The notes under the pieces: model-generated
What the model was told of the DNA's origin: nothing
The model's input: only the letters and a program-made list of their open reading frames with translations
The model's database searches: none
Assembly: GCA_964625335.1 (NCBI GenBank)
Contig: CAZVBE010000009.1
Coordinates: forward strand, 13,494-77,493
Length of the DNA stretch: 64,000 nucleotides
Direction of reading: 5' to 3'
Origin: an uncultured Clostridium sp.
Lineage (GTDB): Bacteria > Bacillota > Clostridia > Ch29
In this document: positions 7,842 to 64,000 of the stretch, one piece after another
Numbering within the stretch: position 1 is the stretch's first letter
How the letters are laid out: each line of letters begins with the position of its first letter
Translations under genes and position numbers: made by a program

Positions 7842-7898
7842 TTTTGTTTACGGGGGGTACGAAATTCGTACGCAGATTTGCCAAAATACAAATCCGCT

Positions 7899-7972
7899 TT
7901 CACCCATAGTCAGGCAATTTACGGTCGCCTGGTAGAGACTTGCGGGCCAATCCCCGCCATTATATGAGTGAA
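7899..7972 (-). promoter_or_regulatory. Purine (guanine-type) riboswitch aptamer, G-box
   Basis: The reverse complement reads cactcatataatggcggggattggcccgcaagtctctaccaggcgaccgtaaattgcctgactatgggtg. This is a close match to the xpt G-box (P1 cactcata/tatgggtg, GGAU..GGCC loop, GUUUCUACC-like junction, CCGUAAAU loop, GACUAUG). Confidence 0.88.
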
Positions 7973-8001
7973 ACAAATTATTAGCTTGTCATTTCACTTT
8001 T

Positions 8002-27387: not shown

Positions 27388-28038
27388 CTAATTATATGTC
27401 TCCTCATCCCTTTGGTTTATCAAATAGGCCAGCACCCTTAAGCTTTCATTCAAATGGACGTTTTCCACAATAACGTCCTCCGGGACATTCAATATGGTAG
27501 GAGCAAAGTTCCAGATAGCTTTTATCCCTGAATTAACCAGCCTTTCGGCGGTTTGCTGGGCGGCTTCCCTGGGAGTACAGATAATGCCTACGTTAATGTT
27601 TTCACTTTTGATGAAATCTTCCATTTCATCTATGTCCATGATTTTCACCGTTCCGATTCTAATACCGACCAGCCGCGGATTCAAGTCGAACAAACCCTTA
27701 AGCACAAAGCCCGACCCCCTGAAACCGCTGTAATTTGATATTGCCTGGCCTAGATTGCCCGCTCCAATTATTACTGCATTGTTCTCCTTATGAATACCCA
27801 GTATATCTGCAATCTCATCCCTTAATTCCTTTACGTTGTAGCCATAACCCTGCTGTCCGAAACCGCCGAAGCAGTTTAAATCCTGTCTTACCTGGGAGGC
27901 ATTAAGTCCTAATCCCCTGCCAAACTCCTTTGAAGAAATCCGGGTTACTCCCTTCTCAACCAACTCGCCCAAATATCTATGGTATTTAGGAAGCCTCCTA
28001 ATAACAGCCATCGATACGTTGACTTTTTGTTTGTCCAT
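27388..28038 (-). CDS. rex: Redox-sensing transcriptional repressor Rex
   Basis: 216-aa ORF ...VIRRLPKYHRYL...IIGAGNLGQAI... with a winged helix plus a Rossmann fold. A GGAGAGGAG SD is present. Confidence 0.93.
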   Translation of the reverse strand: MDKQKVNVSMAVIRRLPKYHRYLGELVEKGVTRISSKEFGRGLGLNASQVRQDLNCFGGFGQQGYGYNVKELRDEIADILGIHKENNAVIIGAGNLGQAISNYSGFRGSGFVLKGLFDLNPRLVGIRIGTVKIMDIDEMEDFIKSENINVGIICTPREAAQQTAERLVNSGIKAIWNFAPTILNVPEDVIVENVHLNESLRVLAYLINQRDEETYN

Positions 28039-28129: not shown

Positions 28130-28187
28130 TATGAGCCTGGCAATTTATTCAGTTTCTTTTAGGGCTCCACTTTGTTATAGTATAAGG

Positions 28188-28425
28188 AAAGGGGACACAC
28201 CGTTGCTAACGGGTATTCCTTACTACGGAATGTCCCCGATTGATAAGCTTGCAGGTCAGGGACACACCGTTGCATATAAGGTCAGGGGACACACCTTCAT
28301 AGCTGGTATTCCTTTATGGCCAAGGAATGTCCCCATTAGAATTCCTTTTTACGGAATGTCCCCGATTGATAAGCTTTCGGGTCAGGGGACACACCGCCAC
28401 CGCCACCATGTCCTTTGTCAGACTA
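28188..28425 (+). repeat. Cluster of four tandem, internally rearranged copies of a palindromic element GGGGACACACC...(GG)AATGTCCCC(GATTGATAAGCTT)
   Basis: GGGGACACACC occurs at 28191, ~28258, 28286 and 28385. AATGTCCCCGATTGATAAGCTT occurs at 28229 and 28356. Related single copies lie at 34504 and 61857. Confidence 0.85.
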
Positions 28426-28439
28426 ACCACTGTAAAGGG

Positions 28440-30353
28440 GTGATTAAACTGCCTGTACTATCATGTACTAATCTTATCAAAAGTTATGGTGTGGAATCAA
28501 TATTAAATAATATTAATTTTTATATACATCCCCGCGACAGGATCGGAGTTGTTGGAAACAACGGAGCGGGCAAGTCTACTCTGTTCAGGATAATCGCAGG
28601 GATTGAGCCTCCTGATTCCGGCAGCATAAATGTGATTGGCGGCGCTACCGTAGGTTTTCTCCCGCAGCACCCCGACTTTGAACCCGACGTTAAGGTATGG
28701 GAGCATCTTGTAAAAAACTTCGCACATCTTACCCAAATGGAAAACCGGATTAGGGAGCTCGAAATCCTTATGTCCCAGGTAAACGGCCGGGAACTGAAAC
28801 AGCTTATGAAGGAATATGGAGATATTACCGAAACCTTTGCCCAAAGCGGCGGCTATGAATATAAGAGCCTGATTCGGGGAGCCCTCAGGGGCCTGGGTAT
28901 ACAGGAAAGCCAGTTCCGGATGCCCTTAGGGCTTTTAAGCGGCGGACAGCAGACCAGGGTAGCTTTGGCGGAATTGCTGCTTAGAAAACACCACCTTCTG
29001 CTTTTGGATGAACCTACAAACTATCTGGACATAGAAGCCGTGGAATGGCTGGAGGGCTTTTTATCCGAATATGACGGAGCAGTTATGATAATATCCCATG
29101 ACAGGTACTTTCTGGACAGGGTGTGCACCAGGACCTTTGAGATTAGCGACGCCAACCTGTTTGAATTCCGGGGCAACTACTCGGATTATGTTTATCAAAA
29201 ACAGGTGATGCTTGAGGTGGAAACCAGACACTATAAAGACCAGCAAAGGGAAATAAAAAGACAGCAGGAAGTCATCCGCAGGCTGAAATCCTATAACAGG
29301 CAGAAAACGGTAAAAAGGGCCAACAGCCGGGAGAAGCTTCTTTCGCGTATCCAGCCCCTGGACAAACCCGGGGAGGATACCGGGAAAGTCGATATAAGAC
29401 TGGATCCGCTTATAAAAAGCGGCAGAAATGTGCTGGCCCTTGAGGATGTTTCGATGGCTTTTTCAAAAAACCATCTATTTGACGGTGTAAACCTTAGGGT
29501 TTACCGCGGAGAAATAATAGGCATAATAGGCCCCAACGGAATTGGAAAAACCACGCTGTTTAATATTATATCCGGCAAATTGGAGCCTGCCTCCGGCAAA
29601 ATTATAAGGGGGCATAATACCAATATTGAATACTACCACCAGCAGCAGGAAAATATAAATCCTGCCAATACGGTGCTGGATGAGGTTTGGGAGCAAAACC
29701 CCGACCTAAGCAATACCGCAACCAGGAATCTACTGGCTGCCTTTTTATTCAGCGGGGATGATGTATATAAAAAAATAGACTGCCTCAGCGGCGGTGAAAA
29801 AAGCCGGGTAGCCCTTGCAAAGCTTATGCTGTCCCGTTCCAATCTGCTACTGTTGGATGAACCGACAAACCATCTTGACATACAATCAAGGGAAGTGCTG
29901 GAGGATGCCCTTATAGACTATACAGGCACTGTGCTGGTGATATCCCATGACAGGTATTTTCTTGACCGGGTTACCACAAAAACCGCACAGTTCACTCCAC
30001 AGGGTATAACCCTTTATCATGGCAACTACAGCTACTACAAAATGAAAAAACAGCAGCAGGAGGAAGCGGAAAAACAGAAACCGAGGAACACCCAAACCAA
30101 AACGGCCCTTAAACAACAGAAGAAAAAGGAAAAGGAAGAAAGGGAGCTCAAAAAGCATGAGAAGGGGAAAATACTAAGACTGGAACAGGAAATAACCCGG
30201 TATGAAGAAGAAATACTCCGCCTGGAGCACCGGATGTGTCAGCCGGAAGTATATTCCGACCCGGATGAAATAAGAAAACTTACCACCACTTCGAAGGAAC
30301 TTAAGGAAAAATTGGAGGAACTTTATAAGCGATGGGAAGAAGCTGTGGAATAG
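28440..30353 (+). CDS. ABC-F family ATPase (Uup/YdiF-like, two ABC domains plus a C-terminal coiled coil)
   Basis: The ORF is open from 28131 but the N-terminal 103 codons are the repeat cluster. The likely start is the GTG at 28440 (MIKLPVLSCTNLIKSYG...), and that start is uncertain. It has Walker A GNNGAGKST and GPNGIGKTT and two LSGG signatures. Confidence 0.85.
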   Translation: MIKLPVLSCTNLIKSYGVESILNNINFYIHPRDRIGVVGNNGAGKSTLFRIIAGIEPPDSGSINVIGGATVGFLPQHPDFEPDVKVWEHLVKNFAHLTQMENRIRELEILMSQVNGRELKQLMKEYGDITETFAQSGGYEYKSLIRGALRGLGIQESQFRMPLGLLSGGQQTRVALAELLLRKHHLLLLDEPTNYLDIEAVEWLEGFLSEYDGAVMIISHDRYFLDRVCTRTFEISDANLFEFRGNYSDYVYQKQVMLEVETRHYKDQQREIKRQQEVIRRLKSYNRQKTVKRANSREKLLSRIQPLDKPGEDTGKVDIRLDPLIKSGRNVLALEDVSMAFSKNHLFDGVNLRVYRGEIIGIIGPNGIGKTTLFNIISGKLEPASGKIIRGHNTNIEYYHQQQENINPANTVLDEVWEQNPDLSNTATRNLLAAFLFSGDDVYKKIDCLSGGEKSRVALAKLMLSRSNLLLLDEPTNHLDIQSREVLEDALIDYTGTVLVISHDRYFLDRVTTKTAQFTPQGITLYHGNYSYYKMKKQQQEEAEKQKPRNTQTKTALKQQKKKEKEERELKKHEKGKILRLEQEITRYEEEILRLEHRMCQPEVYSDPDEIRKLTTTSKELKEKLEELYKRWEEAVE

Positions 30354-32263: not shown

Positions 32264-32344
32264 AAAAAGTAAGCCCAACCACCGCACCGGAATTCAAAGG
32301 ATTATGTCGAAACAACCAACATCGGTTAAGGAGGAATGCATATA

Positions 32345-32905
32345 ATGAAGACCAGGGAAATGATACTGGTATCTATGTTCGCCGCACTTACTGCCATTTT
32401 CGCACAGTTTACAATCCCGCTTCCCTTCAGCCCGGTACCTATAACGATGCAGGAACTGGCGGTATGCCTCGCCGCGGCAATACTCGGGAGCCGGCTGGCA
32501 GTACTCTCTCAGCTAATATACATAGCAGTCGGAATAATCGGAATGCCCGTTTTCTCCGGGGGCACCTCCGGTCTTGCCCAGTTGATGGGCCCTACCGGGG
32601 GCTATATAACAGGTTTTTTGCTCTCTTCCTTCGTCATCGGAAGGATTGTGGAGCAAAGGCCCCTTCCCACGGTACGCAGAACCTTTCTTGCCATGCTGTG
32701 CGGCCTGCTTGTAATCTATACCTGCGGCATGCTCCAACTCTCGCTGGTAGCGGGAATAACCCTTAAGGCCGCTTTTATGTCCGGAGTAGTTCCCTTTATA
32801 GGCATGGCCATTATTAAGATAGTCCTGGGCGCAACCGTTGCCCGCTCGGTAAGGACAGTTCTGATAAGACAAAACCTCTTATACATGCCGCGTCAAAATA
32901 TTTAA
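32345..32905 (+). CDS. bioY: Biotin transporter BioY (ECF S-component)
   Basis: ATG at 32345, 10 nt after GGAGG. MKTREMILVSMFAALTAIFAQFTIPLPFSPVPITMQ... has the BioY signature. Confidence 0.9.
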   Translation: MKTREMILVSMFAALTAIFAQFTIPLPFSPVPITMQELAVCLAAAILGSRLAVLSQLIYIAVGIIGMPVFSGGTSGLAQLMGPTGGYITGFLLSSFVIGRIVEQRPLPTVRRTFLAMLCGLLVIYTCGMLQLSLVAGITLKAAFMSGVVPFIGMAIIKIVLGATVARSVRTVLIRQNLLYMPRQNI

Positions 32906-32906
32906 T

Positions 32907-32945
32907 GTTAACGGCCCTCATGAAATCCGCGGGCCTTTTTTTAGT
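32907..32945 (+). terminator. Putative terminator after bioY
   Basis: A short GC stem ggccc...gggcc followed by T7. Confidence 0.5.
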
Positions 32946-32974
32946 TGCATAAATTTTATGAAACCACCTGCTAT

Positions 32975-33087
32975 TGTGGATAAGTATTTTACTGTTTCCA
33001 CACCTTATCCACAATGTCCACATTATTATCCACAAGAATACAAGGGGTCTTAGAAATTTTCAGGAAGGCATGTCCACATTATCCACA
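32975..33087. promoter_or_regulatory. DnaA-box cluster: 4 perfect TTATCCACA boxes plus 2 near-boxes
   Basis: Perfect boxes at 32975-32983 (reverse), 33005-33013, 33026-33034 and 33079-33087. tGTCCACA variants lie at 33015 and 33071. The cluster sits immediately downstream of tsaD. Confidence 0.8.
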
Positions 33088-33146
33088 TATTTCACATATG
33101 ATTTATTGACATGAACCGTCCAAAAAGGTAAACATAAACCGATTAA

Positions 33147-34214
33147 TTAATAAGAATCAATTTCCATTGATGCCATGGCATTTAACGTGAGAGAGCTTAC
33201 CAGCCCCCTGCGCAGCCTGTAATAACCGGCACATCCAATCATGGCAGCATTGTCGGTGCAAAGCAGCTTTGAAGGATATATAAGCCGTATGCCCTGTCCG
33301 GCACACCGGCTGTCCAACTCCTTACGCAGCCGGCTGTTTGACGCCACTCCGCCTGCAATGGCCACAACCTTGGCTTTGCATTTTTGGGCAGCCATAAGCG
33401 TCTTGTTGGCAAGCACCTCCACCACGGCATTTTGAAAACTGGCGGCTATATCGGCTCTGTTTATTTCCTCGTCCCTTTGCCTGCACATATTGAGGTGGTT
33501 AAGAACCGCAGTCTTAAGACCGCTGAAACTAAAATCCAAGCTCCCTGCCTCGAGGTAAGTCCTGGGAAAATCCACCGCCTCCGGGTCTCCCTTTTCGGCA
33601 AGCCTTTCAACCAGCGGCCCGCCGGGATATCCCAGTTCCAAAGCCCGGGCAACCTTGTCAAAGGCTTCGCCTGCCGCATCATCCCTCGTTCTGCCCAGTA
33701 TCTGATATTCGCCGTACTCCCTTACATTCACCAGATGGCTGTGACCTCCGGAAGCCACCAGACATACAAAGGGCGGCTCCATAGCCCTGTGTTCAAGATA
33801 ATTGGCGCAAATATGCCCCTCTATGTGATGAACGCCGGTAAGGGGTACATCCAGGGCAAAGGCCATCGCCTTGGCATACGAAACCCCCACCAGCAGTGCG
33901 CCTACCAGACCCGGACCGTGGGTTACTGCTATGGCGTCAATATCCTGCAGCCTGGTGTGTGCCATTTGCAGTGCCTCCTCTATAACATAGTCAATCAGTT
34001 CGATATGCTTTCTGGAGGCGATCTCAGGAACCACTCCACCGTACCTTTTATGTATATCCACCTGCGACGAAATGACGTTTGACAGCATCTCCCTGCCGTT
34101 GAAAATTACCGCACAGGAAGTTTCATCGCACGAAGTCTCTACTGCCAGGATTTTTGTGTCTTCCCTGCCATCAAATTTATTAAGTTTTTCTGCTGCCCTT
34201 TGTATATAACCCAT
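33147..34214 (-). CDS. tsaD: tRNA N6-adenosine threonylcarbamoyltransferase TsaD (Gcp/Kae1 family)
   Basis: ORF 33147..34259. The start is placed at the ATG at 34214, with a GGAGAAGGAG SD. The only in-frame start gives [33 protein letters not shown]... It has the H..H metal site and the GGVASN motif. Confidence 0.93.
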
Positions 34215-34248
34215 CAGCTTTCTCCTTCTCCAGAAATTCACATATATA

Positions 34249-34428
34249 TTATACACCATGGCGGTAAAAGATAAAAATATCGCACTCTCCGTCGTTCCAG
34301 TTTACACAAAACCGGCAGTCCGGGTAATAAATGGTATCAAGATTGTTCAATAAGGATATGCCGAAATTCTGGCTTTCGGCAACAGAGCAGTATTCGGGGC
34401 ACCTGGAAGCTATATCTTTATGTTTCAT
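34249..34428 (-). CDS. Small cysteine-rich hypothetical protein (59 aa)
   Basis: Internal ATG at 34428 with an [35 protein letters not shown]...[23 protein letters not shown] contains 6 Cys. Confidence 0.45.
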
Positions 34429-34503
34429 ACAACCACCTTCCTTAAGCCGTTTGGTATTAGCTTCTGTAGCCGGGAATATAATATACCCCAAACCTCATCA
34501 GCC

Positions 34504-34543
34504 GGGGACTTTCCGCAGCGATATGTCCCTATTGATAAATCAG
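34504..34543 (+). repeat. Copy of the GGGGAC...ATGTCCC.ATTGA element
   Basis: GGGGACTTTCCGCAGCGATATGTCCCTATTGATAAATCAG aligns with GGGGACACACCGCAGTATGTCCCCGATTGACAG at 61859. It ends 18 nt before the ATG of the next small gene. Confidence 0.8.
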
Positions 34544-34561
34544 CAAAAGGAGGGAAGTAAT

Positions 34562-34768
34562 ATGGCAAAGCAAAGAAAAACCCTGACCGAAAGGGCCTAT
34601 GGAACGAATGTGCTGTCTGATGCGGCTCTTTCCAGAATAGAGAGCCTGCAGGGCACAAACCTTATGCCTCAAAACACCGACTTTGAACAGCTGAAAAGTC
34701 TGGCAGGTCCCGAAAAAGAAAAAAATTCCTCGCTCCCGGAGGGTGAGGATGATCCGGACGGGAAGTGA
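34562..34768 (+). CDS. Small hypothetical protein (68 aa)
   Basis: ATG at 34562, 7 nt after the strong SD AAAAGGAGGG. MAKQRKTLTERAYGTNVLSDAALSRIESLQGTN... It is convergent with rimI. Confidence 0.55.
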   Translation: MAKQRKTLTERAYGTNVLSDAALSRIESLQGTNLMPQNTDFEQLKSLAGPEKEKNSSLPEGEDDPDGK

Positions 34769-34812
34769 CATGCTGCCACCCGCAGGGGCAGACAGTCTGA
34801 TGTCACGGTAAA

Positions 34813-35259
34813 TCAGACCTCAAGCCACATAATAATAGCGTCTTCATTGATATCCGAATAATACCCCTTTCTAATGCCCGCCTTAACGAACCCCAAATCC
34901 TCATACAGCTTTAAGGCAATGTGATTGCTTGCCCTTACCTCAAGGGTAAAGCTGTCTATTTTACGGGAAATGCCGTATTCAATCATCCCCCTAATGAGTA
35001 TTTTGCCTATTCCTTTGCGCCGGTACTCCGGATGCACCGCGAGATTTGTGATATGAGCCTCATTAAGGATAAGCCACATCCCCCCATAGGCTGCCACCCT
35101 GCTGTTGTCCCTGACAGTAATGTAATGGGCAAACCTGTTGGCGGTCAGCTCCTGTACAAAGGCCTCCCTTGACCAGGGTATTGTAAAGCTCAGGCTTTCT
35201 ATTTCCTGTATCTGGTCCAGGTCTTCGATAAGCATTGGCATTATCCGAAGCTCCTTCAT
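34813..35259 (-). CDS. rimI: Ribosomal-protein-alanine N-acetyltransferase
   Basis: 148-aa GNAT protein with the acetyl-CoA motif RRKGIGKILI. It overlaps the tsaB stop. Confidence 0.88.
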   Translation of the reverse strand: MKELRIMPMLIEDLDQIQEIESLSFTIPWSREAFVQELTANRFAHYITVRDNSRVAAYGGMWLILNEAHITNLAVHPEYRRKGIGKILIRGMIEYGISRKIDSFTLEVRASNHIALKLYEDLGFVKAGIRKGYYSDINEDAIIMWLEV

Positions 35260-35972
35260 TTCTTATCTCTCCTGCAAACCTTTTTATCATATTCCCTCTC
35301 GGCCTGGGATTTTCTCAGGTAGAAGGGCACAAACCCGTCACCGCTCCCGCCTTCTCCGCGTTTTAAGGCCTCCATCGCCAGCTCCGCTATCGAAGATGCC
35401 CTTTGCCTGTCGGCGTTCCGGGGAGCGAACCGGGCCCGAACTCCCAGTGTGCTTTGAATGAGTTCCCGGTGTACCGGGACCCCATCCCCTAAGAATATCA
35501 CCATTTCCTCCCTTGCCTTGAGTCCTTCCAGCAGCTCGGACAGGGCCACAGCGCAGTGGGGTTTTAATTTATAGAAATTTCCCTGGTCCCATTTGTATAA
35601 AGCCGTATATACCTGGTTTCTCCTGGCATCCATTATGGGACATATTATTCCCTGACAGTAGGGAAGGTTGAAAGCCAAACCGTCAAGGGTAGGAACCCCT
35701 ATCAGTTTTTTGTTATGGGCATGGGCCAGTCCCTTTGCAGTGGCGCCGCCTATCCTAAGGCCTGTGAAGGAGCCGGGTCCGCTGGATACCGCAATTGCGT
35801 CAATTTCCTCTATATTTATCCCGCAGCTTTCCAGCAGTTCCTCAATAATCGGCATAAGCTGCTCCGAATGGGTCTTTTCATGATTAATTATGTACTCGGC
35901 CGCCAGCTTTTCCTCATCCATTATGGCAGCGGAAGCCACCATTGAAGAAGTATCAATCGCCAGTATTTTCAT
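35256..35972 (-). CDS. tsaB: tRNA threonylcarbamoyladenosine biosynthesis protein TsaB (YeaZ)
   Basis: 238-aa ORF MKILAIDTSSMVASAAIMDEEK... with the inactive Kae1/YgjD-like fold. Confidence 0.9.
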   Translation of the reverse strand: MKILAIDTSSMVASAAIMDEEKLAAEYIINHEKTHSEQLMPIIEELLESCGINIEEIDAIAVSSGPGSFTGLRIGGATAKGLAHAHNKKLIGVPTLDGLAFNLPYCQGIICPIMDARRNQVYTALYKWDQGNFYKLKPHCAVALSELLEGLKAREEMVIFLGDGVPVHRELIQSTLGVRARFAPRNADRQRASSIAELAMEALKRGEGGSGDGFVPFYLRKSQAEREYDKKVCRRDKK

Positions 35973-36432
35973 TTCTTCTCACCCTTTCCACAAGCGTCCG
36001 GTATATTTCTCCCGCCGTCAGTTCTATAAACCTTGCAGATTCGGATTCTGCCAGCCTCGCCAGCCCTATCCTGATGCAGTCCCGGGGCATCAGGTTCTTT
36101 GCCCGGGATGCCCATTCGATTACCGATACCCCCTGTCCATATATGAGGTCTTCTCCGCCGATATGATACAGCTCCTCCTCATCCTCCAGACGGTAAAGGT
36201 CAAAATGGTACAGCGGAATTGTCCCGGAATACTCGTTGATAAGCGTATAGGTAGGGCTGGTAACATAGCAGTCGATATCCATGCCTTTGGCAATGCCCTG
36301 GGTTAATACCGTTTTACCTGCGCCAAGTTCTCCCTCAAGGCATACCACATCGCCGGGCTCTAACAGCTGTCCCAGACGCATTCCAAACTCCAAAGTGTCC
36401 CGGGGACAGGTACTGACAAAAGAATATTTCAT
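35953..36432 (-). CDS. tsaE: tRNA threonylcarbamoyladenosine biosynthesis ATPase TsaE (YjeE)
   Basis: 159-aa ORF with the P-loop GELGAGKT. Confidence 0.9.
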   Translation of the reverse strand: MKYSFVSTCPRDTLEFGMRLGQLLEPGDVVCLEGELGAGKTVLTQGIAKGMDIDCYVTSPTYTLINEYSGTIPLYHFDLYRLEDEEELYHIGGEDLIYGQGVSVIEWASRAKNLMPRDCIRIGLARLAESESARFIELTAGEIYRTLVERVRRNENTGD

Positions 36433-46554: not shown

Positions 46555-47082
46555 TTAAAATATTGGTTCTATTAACCCGTAATTACCATCCTTTCTTCTA
46601 TATACTACATTGACCTCATCGGTATCGCCGTTTGAAAAAACAAAGAAACTGTGCCCCAAAAGCTCCATCTGCAGTATTGCCTCCTCAACGGGCATCGGCT
46701 TCATTGCAAATCTTTTGGTTTTTACCACCCTGGGCCTTTCCACATCTTCCCTTCCATCCGCTTCTATGTTCTCAAAAATCAGTCTGCTTCCCCTAAACCT
46801 TCTTTCAAGTTTGGTTTTATGTTTGTTAATCTGACGTTCCAGCTTATCTACAGCCTTGTCAATGGATGTATACATATCTTCGGTGCACTCCTCGGCCCTG
46901 ATAAGTACACCGTCAAAGGGAATGGTGACCTCGATTATATGCCGGCTTTTTTCAACGTTCAGCGTAACCTGAGCCTCTGTGTCTTTCTGAAAATACTTGT
47001 TCAGTTTGCCTATCTTTCTCTCAATTGTGTCCCTCAAAGCATCGGTTACTTCCATATTCTTCCCGCTAGTAATGATACGCAT
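46555..47082 (-). CDS. hpf: Ribosome hibernation promoting factor, long form
   Basis: 175-aa ORF MRIITSGKNMEVTDALRDTIERKIGKLNKYF... with a C-terminal dimerisation domain. A GGAGAGGAG SD is present. Confidence 0.93.
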   Translation of the reverse strand: MRIITSGKNMEVTDALRDTIERKIGKLNKYFQKDTEAQVTLNVEKSRHIIEVTIPFDGVLIRAEECTEDMYTSIDKAVDKLERQINKHKTKLERRFRGSRLIFENIEADGREDVERPRVVKTKRFAMKPMPVEEAILQMELLGHSFFVFSNGDTDEVNVVYRRKDGNYGLIEPIF

Positions 47083-47297: not shown

Positions 47298-47395
47298 TGT
47301 GGAAACAAAACATGTGGATAAAGTGGATAAGTCTGTTAATAACCCATAGTTCTGTATTAAATGATGTGTATAACTAATGCCGCAAATGTGGATAT
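47298..47395. promoter_or_regulatory. DnaA-box-like sites upstream of hpf
   Basis: One perfect TGTGGATAA (47314-47322) and three 1-2-mismatch boxes (47298, 47322, 47387), all in the same orientation. Confidence 0.35.
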
Positions 47396-47526: not shown

Positions 47527-47748
47527 AAAGTTTATCCGGCTGACCTGGTCTTTGACCCCACACTCGCCTGCTGCAGGTCTCGCTCCGGTTTTTATACCTT
47601 CACTACCCCCCGTCTCTGCTGAAGTTTAATAAAGCAGGCAGGACTTACACCTAAACCGCACCATGCTCACCGGCATTTTTGCCGGCTTACGTGGGTCGCT
47701 TCGCCTGCGATTGGCATCGACTTTCAACCACAGACCCGGATAAACTTT
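47527..47748. other. 222-bp GC-rich element bounded by a perfect 13-bp inverted repeat AAAGTTTATCCGG / CCGGATAAACTTT
   Basis: The terminal inverted repeat is perfect. The interior includes the hairpin ccggca-tttt-tgccgg. It is embedded in AT-rich intergenic DNA between hpf and the flagellar genes. Confidence 0.5.
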
Positions 47749-63849: not shown

Positions 63850-64000
63850 GTAAAATAAAAAGCCCCCTTATGTATAAGGAGGTTATTATACCACCTTATC
63901 TTACAGAATATAAAATCCTGTGGGAATTGGCACCATAGCTCAAATACGCCGGTTGCCGGGTTTCATAGGGCCCTTGTCCCTCCACCTCTCTTGATAAGGT
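63850..64000 (-). promoter_or_regulatory. SAM-I (S-box) riboswitch upstream of metK. The aptamer runs to the window edge and may be cut by a few nt.
   Basis: The reverse complement of 63893-64000 reads accttatcaagagaggtggagggacaagggccctatgaaacccggcaaccggcg...ggtgccaattcccacagg...ctgtaagataagg, which is the S-box consensus (CUCUUAUCAAGAGAGGUGGAGGGAC...AUGAAACCCGGCAACC...GGUGCCAAUUCC). The expression platform 63850-63892 contains an anti-SD, CCTCCTTA. Confidence 0.88.

Follow-up and report, generated by a model that had tools for sequence, protein, structure and literature searches.

In the DNA analyzed here, the intergenic region immediately 3' of tsaD (gcp) carries an array of nine DnaA boxes that is not part of a replication origin and whose position, orientation and architecture are conserved across Bacillota. 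Sequence and comparative evidence, taken together with experiments in Bacillus subtilis, strongly supports both the binding of DnaA to this array and its orthology to the B. subtilis cluster DBC[gcp-ydiF]. We consider the array to be a non-origin, high-affinity DnaA-binding cluster whose most likely role is that of a chromosomal sink or buffer for the active initiator, and we put the probability of this reading at roughly 0.6. Elements of this kind, and their conservation within Bacillaceae, have been known since 2007. We found no paper in the literature searched that connects tsaD to DnaA boxes or reports clusters of this type from Clostridia, and conservation beyond Bacillaceae appears to be unreported there.

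The array occupies 137 bp (32975-33111) of the window, by which we mean the whole 64-kb stretch of DNA analyzed, and begins 36 bp past the tsaD stop codon (Table 1). Four of its boxes are perfect copies of TTATCCACA, and two variants and three further conserved degenerate boxes bring the total to nine. The perfect boxes, three on the + strand and one on the - strand, span 113 bp (32975-33087), exactly as an earlier sequence-only reading had described them, and the two tGTCCACA variants mentioned in that reading are the ATGTCCACA boxes, each of which directly adjoins a perfect box. Eight of the nine boxes run head to tail and are grouped into two triplets, in which successive box starts are 9 or 12 bp apart; the remaining box is inverted. 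On the tsaD sense strand, the triple-box module reads TGTGGATAA-taa-TGTGGACAT-TGTGGATAA, with box starts that are 12 and then 9 bp apart, corresponding to the general form TGTGGATAA-nnn-TGTGGAnnn-TGTGGATAA. The abutting triplet reads TGTGAAATA-TGTGGATAA-TGTGGACAT on the same strand. A gcp(tsaD)-ydiF type cluster is expected to have at least 4-5 boxes at no more than one mismatch in ~150 bp of intergenic DNA immediately 3' of tsaD; with four perfect and five degenerate boxes in 137 bp at this site, the array has both the density and the location of such a cluster.

Table 1. The DnaA-box array and the genes around it; offsets are in bp from the tsaD stop codon.
Feature	Position	Strand	Remarks
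rex	27388-28038	-	Pfam
ABC-F ATPase gene	28131-30353	+	Pfam
bioY	32336-32905	+	Pfam BioY; convergent with tsaD
Perfect DnaA box TTATCCACA	32975-32983	-	inverted relative to the rest of the array; farthest from tsaD; offset +164
Degenerate DnaA box GTTTCCACA	32994-33002	+	two mismatches; offset +145; TGTGGAAAC on the tsaD sense strand
Triple-box module TTATCCACA-ATGTCCACA-tta-TTATCCACA	33005-33034	+	offset +113 to +142
Module, perfect box TTATCCACA	33005-33013	+	
Module, variant box ATGTCCACA	33014-33022	+	
Module, perfect box TTATCCACA	33026-33034	+	
Abutting triplet, variant box ATGTCCACA	33070-33078	+	triplet at offset +51 to +77
Abutting triplet, perfect box TTATCCACA	33079-33087	+	
Abutting triplet, box TATTTCACA	33088-33096	+	
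Degenerate DnaA box TTATTGACA	33103-33111	+	two mismatches in the window; offset +36; TGTCAATAA on the tsaD sense strand
Non-box block TTTATGTTTACC (tsaD sense strand)	33127-33138	-	offset +12; beside the array; not a DnaA box
tsaD (gcp)	33147-34214	-	355 aa; Pfam TsaD E=4e-99
tsaE-tsaB-rimI operon	34813-36432	-	Pfam; upstream of tsaD

The Pfam gene context places the array between the 3' ends of the convergent genes tsaD and bioY. The start assigned to tsaD is an ATG that was picked for its good ribosome-binding site, and the identical 355-aa protein has been called on metagenome contigs; the gene has a TGnTATAAT-like promoter of its own around 34247-34258. On the far side of the array, a GC-rich inverted repeat with a T-run (about 32913-32942) lies 3' of bioY and was read as the bioY terminator. 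The claims that the site is non-coding, that it lies between bioY and the 3' end of tsaD, and that an ABC-F gene is nearby all hold for this locus, the ABC-F gene being displaced by ~3 kb, with genes for a GntR/FCD regulator and an asparaginase interposed together with bioY (Pfam). Rfam found no RNA family in the intergenic region, and a structured RNA at the array was rejected on this basis. Upstream of tsaD, the 600-bp gap that separates it from rimI (34215-34812) contains two small ORFs with good ribosome-binding sites, one of 68 aa on the + strand (about 34564-34770) and a Cys-rich one of 59 aa on the - strand (about 34249-34428). Both were also reported by gene callers on the source contigs and in relatives (L206-L208), with no Pfam family recorded. 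Elsewhere in the window, Rfam-type regulatory RNAs on the - strand include a purine riboswitch (7887-7987, 85 bits) and a SAM riboswitch (63893-64000, 94 bits).

To compare the array with its B. subtilis counterpart, we read the latter directly in a locus found through its TsaD (L085, CP150160). The gene order there is thiL-tsaE-tsaB-rimI-tsaD, followed by the convergent ydiF (ABC-F) and then by moaC and rex. The 229-bp intergenic region contains, on the tsaD sense strand, TTATCCACA near tsaD, then AGTGGATAA, the abutting TGTGGATAG-TGTGTATAA, and TGTGGATAA. The window has the same tsaE-tsaB-rimI-tsaD, ABC-F and rex genes in equal relative orientations, with three genes inserted; the core order is uninterrupted in L085, and a small extra gene is present between tsaD and the ABC-F gene in Fusibacter (L209) and a Clostridium sp. 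(L211). Each cluster directly follows the 3' end of tsaD, and neither is within a promoter. In each, most boxes read TGTGGATAA on the tsaD sense strand and one box is inverted, and the nine boxes of the window array compare with 8-10 in B. subtilis (PMC2533591, PMC4447404). They differ in that the window array is tighter and closer to consensus, with four exact TTATCCACA matches versus two, and is organized as two triplets, whereas the B. subtilis array is looser. The inverted box is distal to tsaD in the window and proximal in B. subtilis and L211, the convergent neighbor in the window is bioY rather than the ABC-F gene, and the host is an uncultured clostridial lineage. Position, box orientation, synteny and conservation nevertheless all bear out the match to the gcp-ydiF cluster that the sequence-only reading had proposed. 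As for map position, tsaD and its cluster are found at 0.626 of 4.18 Mb in B. subtilis (CP150160) and, in the 4.91-Mb record of Fusibacter (CP192292), ~0.73 Mb before its end; measured from the record start, each site is at ~54 degrees, and the two are on opposite replichores, a comparison that is meaningful only if both records begin at dnaA.

The B. subtilis cluster has been characterized experimentally. DnaA binds gcp-ydiF in vivo (Ishikawa 2007, PMC2533591), at a site that was termed 'uncharacteristic for transcriptional regulation' and 'highly conserved' in Bacillus, Geobacillus and Oceanobacillus (PMC2533591). In vitro, the site is bound with a Kd of 0.15 uM, and ATP-DnaA is preferred 16-fold (Smith and Grossman 2015, PMC4447404). 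By analogy with these experiments, the window array would be expected to be occupied by DnaA and to prefer the ATP-bound form.

Several other DnaA-box clusters can be compared with the window array. Arrays at oriC, in the dnaA-dnaN region, contain the same 9-mer with the same tandem spacing, whereas the window has no dnaA, dnaN, unwinding element or skew switch. E. coli datA is likewise a non-origin DnaA-box cluster that is thought to reduce the available active initiator, but it has a different box geometry and no sequence homology to the window array; datA acts with IHF to stimulate hydrolysis of DnaA-bound ATP. The other B. subtilis clusters (sda, ywlC, which we take to be tsaC, yydA, trmE/thdF-jag and ywcI-vpr) are the same kind of box arrays, but most of them are upstream of genes, whereas the tsaD cluster is at a gene 3' end. 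DnaA regulates sda, ywlC and yydA in B. subtilis (PMC2533591).

We compared the window with five relative loci (L206, L207, L212, L213 and L208) whose TsaD proteins are 67-79% identical to that of the window, giving an alignment of six sequences (A2). All five relatives carry the array, and the absence of boxes from the tsaD locus of related genomes, which the sequence-only reading had named as grounds for abandoning its proposal, is therefore not observed. The box offsets equal those of the window in four of the five; in L208, which has an insertion of ~200 bp past the tsaD stop, the boxes are shifted together with the TTTATGTTTACC block. Box positions are kept in these relatives while the spacers drift. 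Within the boxes, 45 of 81 alignment columns are invariant compared with 14 of 116 outside (Fisher p = 6.5e-11), and the mean identity to the window is 85% in the boxes versus 50% outside. The box cores of the triple-box module are nearly invariant, the three abutting boxes are kept in all five relatives, and L206, L207 and L212 keep the inverted box, at an offset of +163 to +165. On the tsaD sense strand, five of the six sequences have TGTGGAAA as the degenerate box at 32994-33002 (L208 aligns only at TGTG), and the one at 33103-33111 has a single mismatch in L206, L207, L208 and L213. The TTTATGTTTACC block next to the array is present in 6/6 sequences. One relative (L206) lacks bioY and has a GntR regulator gene next to tsaD instead, with the array still in place.

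At greater distances, we surveyed species-representative genomes matched by TsaD, using the best 80 of the first 600 matches (49-63% identity). The closest relatives fall outside these best 80 and had been recovered separately, via contigs encoding TsaD. A cluster was counted when the 500 bp past the tsaD stop contained at least four boxes, each having one mismatch at most. By this definition, 11 of these 80 loci have a cluster, all of them in Bacillota, compared with 0/1059 other 500-bp windows of the same loci; a twelfth locus (L024) reaches four boxes if one overlapping the tsaD stop is counted. The 500 bp after tsaD make up 5.5% of the 691 kb covered and contain 27 of its 37 perfect boxes (binomial p = 2e-26). 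Most boxes of the 11 clusters (49/55, 89%) share the orientation seen in the window, with TGTGGATAA on the tsaD sense strand. The cluster occurs in Clostridiaceae MAGs, Alkaliphilus peptidifermentans, Clostridia MAGs, a Carboxydocellales MAG, an unclassified Bacillota MAG and three Syntrophomonadaceae. Three more named Clostridia were fetched separately, namely Fusibacter, Caloramator quimbayensis and a Clostridium sp.; each of them has the cluster, with the 12+9 module in two of the three. Downstream of tsaD, the module is identical in L028, L042 and L046, and variants of it occur in L024, L026, L052, L209 and L210.

Because this survey was anchored on tsaD, clusters left with the ABC-F gene after a rearrangement would escape notice in it; within that scope, no cluster follows tsaD in ~30 Lachnospiraceae loci, in the Oscillospiraceae, Negativicutes, Peptococcus and Limnochordia loci, or in any non-Bacillota locus among the 80. 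The absence of the cluster from Lachnospiraceae, Oscillospiraceae and Negativicutes indicates that it is dispensable in many lineages. Where it is present, its downstream neighbor varies and may be bioY, a GntR regulator gene, a lytic-transglycosylase-like or lgt-like gene (both identified by reading the sequence alone), a response regulator gene or an ABC-F gene, convergent in some lineages and co-directional in others. The sole constant partner of the cluster is tsaD. We also observed that eight Lachnospiraceae loci (L004, L005, L006, L008, L016, L021, L022 and L035) have one or two tRNA genes 0.8-1.5 kb after tsaD, with the start of a 16S rRNA gene visible before the contig end in L022 and L035. 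Many MAG contigs stop ~1-1.5 kb from tsaD, and these eight loci have no DnaA boxes after tsaD.

A search that made no use of tsaD gave a similar picture. The bare 30-bp module TGTGGATAANNNTGTGGANNNTGTGGATAA, used as the query against metagenomes, matched at least 120 stretches representing 49 dereplicated contexts, which were classified by dereplication, longest non-overlapping ORFs, Pfam and tblastn. Among the matches listed, tsaD is directly upstream on the same strand, at a distance of 65-429 bp, in 12 of the 49 contexts (16 loci), with TsaD proteins 44-61% identical to that of the window. The tsaD 3' end is therefore the most frequent home of the module among these matches. The other contexts among the matches listed are lysS to mraZ (3/49; L108, L155 and L165), the start of trmE just before gidA (2/49; the L139 and L157 groups), a verified dnaA-dnaN region (1/49; L127), the region upstream of hpf (1/49) and a site 130 bp upstream of rex (1/49; L118); 29/49 are tied to none of these genes. 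No ABC-F gene adjoins the module without tsaD among the module-scan matches listed. Pfam and tblastn did not confirm L132, L144 and L196 as dnaA-dnaN sites, leaving L127 as the only verified one. The trmE/gidA contexts resemble the thdF-jag cluster of B. subtilis. Conservation of the cluster at tsaD across Firmicutes, a comparison that the sequence-only reading had called for, is thus found in close relatives, in 11 of the 80 surveyed loci, in three further Clostridia and in metagenomes.

The window also contains a second, weaker DnaA-box cluster at 47313-47395 (recorded with 46555-47082 and 47531-47744), consisting of four - strand boxes, TTATCCACA, TTATCCACT, TTATACACA and ATATCCACA. A raiA-motif RNA (Rfam, 190 bits) flanks it on one side and the ribosome-hibernation gene hpf on the other. 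A far stronger cluster is found in metagenome loci L168/L200, 200-350 bp upstream of an hpf homolog (53% identical), with four perfect boxes that include a 9+12 triple in the same orientation, and with no raiA RNA. At least two lineages thus have DnaA boxes upstream of hpf.

Several explanations of the tsaD-linked array compete with the one we favor. That it is a chance or lineage-specific cluster, a replication origin or an origin relic has nothing in its favor beyond the DnaA boxes themselves, and we give this a negligible probability. The window contains six perfect TTATCCACA boxes versus 0.73 expected from dinucleotide-preserving shuffles of the whole window (n = 100), none of which gave six, and a Poisson estimate for at least four boxes within any 113-bp stretch of the window is ~7e-9; these statistics and the conservation in relatives rule out a chance or lineage-specific cluster. 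The GC skew is negative over all 64 kb without a switch and no DnaA or L34 motif is present in any frame of the window, which rules out an origin or origin relic here; in addition, the flanking genes are tsaD and bioY, and the boxes have neither an AT-rich unwinding element nor a trinucleotide repeat tract beside them. The boxes might instead be the operator of an intergenic promoter for an antisense RNA to tsaD, or for an unannotated small RNA or gene. A consensus promoter scan does place two weak promoter-like sites over the boxes, one at 33073-33102 (+ strand, TCCACA-18-TATGAT) and one at 32980-32953 (- strand, TCCACA-16-TAAAAT), but such sites are at chance level in the region (6 vs 3.7 +/- 1.8 expected), and neither an Rfam family nor a conserved ORF is present. 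Because the + strand -10 element varies in alignments A1 and A2 (TATGAT in the window is CCGGAA in L206), we rejected an antisense or internal promoter as the conserved function, and an operator of this type seems very improbable. Boxes lying over the conserved promoter of an adjacent gene, the arrangement expected of a DnaA-regulated promoter or operator, are not seen at this site between convergent 3' ends, and regulation of the tsa operon by the array finds no support in the sequence.

For the sink or buffer that we favor, the head-to-tail boxes would load a cooperative ATP-DnaA oligomer onto duplex DNA just beyond the tsaD stop. The array would then act jointly with other such sites to restrain replication initiation and would not serve as the operator of a neighboring promoter. 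B. subtilis lacking all six clusters initiates replication early (Okumura 2012, PMC3245932). However, deletion of DBC[gcp-ydiF] alone leaves the oriC/ter ratio unchanged, at 0.99 of wild type, and putting it back into the six-cluster deletion strain does not restore control (3.13 vs 3.17; PMC3245932). Because neither the single deletion nor the re-insertion has an effect, the case for a passive sink is weak at gcp-ydiF, and we infer a sink function for the window array with corresponding caution. A position-independent sink also leaves unexplained the attachment of the array to tsaD in a single orientation over deep divergence, which keeps both a cis role and a datA/DARS-like role alive. A cis-acting element coupled to tsaD transcription is conceivable, if on the whole unlikely: a DnaA-ATP filament at the 3' end might serve as a roadblock or insulator that ends tsaD transcription or shields the essential tsaD gene from convergent or antisense transcription, or the array might exploit positive supercoiling at the gene 3' end, or, conversely, tsaD read-through might evict DnaA. 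Consistent with such a role, tsaD is the only constant neighbor, the box orientation is fixed relative to it, no obvious terminator lies between the tsaD stop and the boxes in the window, and the site falls between convergent genes both in the window and in B. subtilis, as it does in roughly half of the remaining loci. In addition, stabilization of positive supercoils by DnaA has been discussed, and two other B. subtilis clusters adjoin tRNA-modification genes, ywlC and trmE-gidA (both PMC2533591). Yet a terminator-like hairpin separates tsaD from the boxes in L028, L038, L040 and L042, 200-600 bp or a small gene intervenes in L026, L208 and L211, and an effect of DnaA level on gcp expression was not resolvable in B. 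subtilis (PMC2533591). Furthermore, since tsaD is co-directional with replication, box orientation relative to tsaD is inseparable from orientation relative to the replication fork. Less probable again is an array that sets the nucleotide state of DnaA as E. coli datA/DARS do, promoting ATP hydrolysis or nucleotide exchange beyond simply holding the protein. With its tight head-to-tail arrays and conserved inverted box, the cluster is reminiscent of the ordered box geometry required by such elements, but the position of the inverted box varies, as described above, and we know of no datA/DARS-like activity in Bacillota. Similarly, gcp-ydiF has one of the strongest preferences for ATP- over ADP-DnaA among the high-affinity sites of B. 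subtilis (PMC4447404), but this organism has no IHF or Hda homologs (review PMC13220808).

What is new in these results is the extension of the element to several deep Bacillota lineages, its conserved triple-box architecture and orientation, and the identification of tsaD as the commonest context of the module among the matches listed. DBC[gcp-ydiF] ranks among the strongest DnaA-binding sites of B. subtilis, and the same element is found 3' of tsaD in Clostridiaceae, Alkaliphilus, Fusibacter, Caloramator, Syntrophomonadaceae, Carboxydocellales and several uncultured Clostridia. This deep conservation points to long-term purifying selection on a non-coding, non-origin DnaA site, and such selection suggests that the element does something that is hidden from a single deletion in rich laboratory conditions. 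The survey provides both cultivable carriers and lineages of natural loss (Lachnospiraceae, Oscillospiraceae and Negativicutes) for comparison. A more speculative idea, to which we give only limited credence, is that the tsaD-linked array is an ancient cis-acting element of Bacillota that is tied to tsaD or to its chromosomal position and is not an interchangeable sink. ATP-DnaA status could in that case be coupled to the expression or protection of the t6A tRNA-modification machinery, or the array could be an ATP-DnaA-specific control site that depends on tsaD transcription or fork passage. Either version, if true, would account for the lasting linkage of the array to tsaD, in a single orientation, despite changing downstream neighbors, as well as for the lack of an initiation phenotype after its single deletion in B. 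subtilis.
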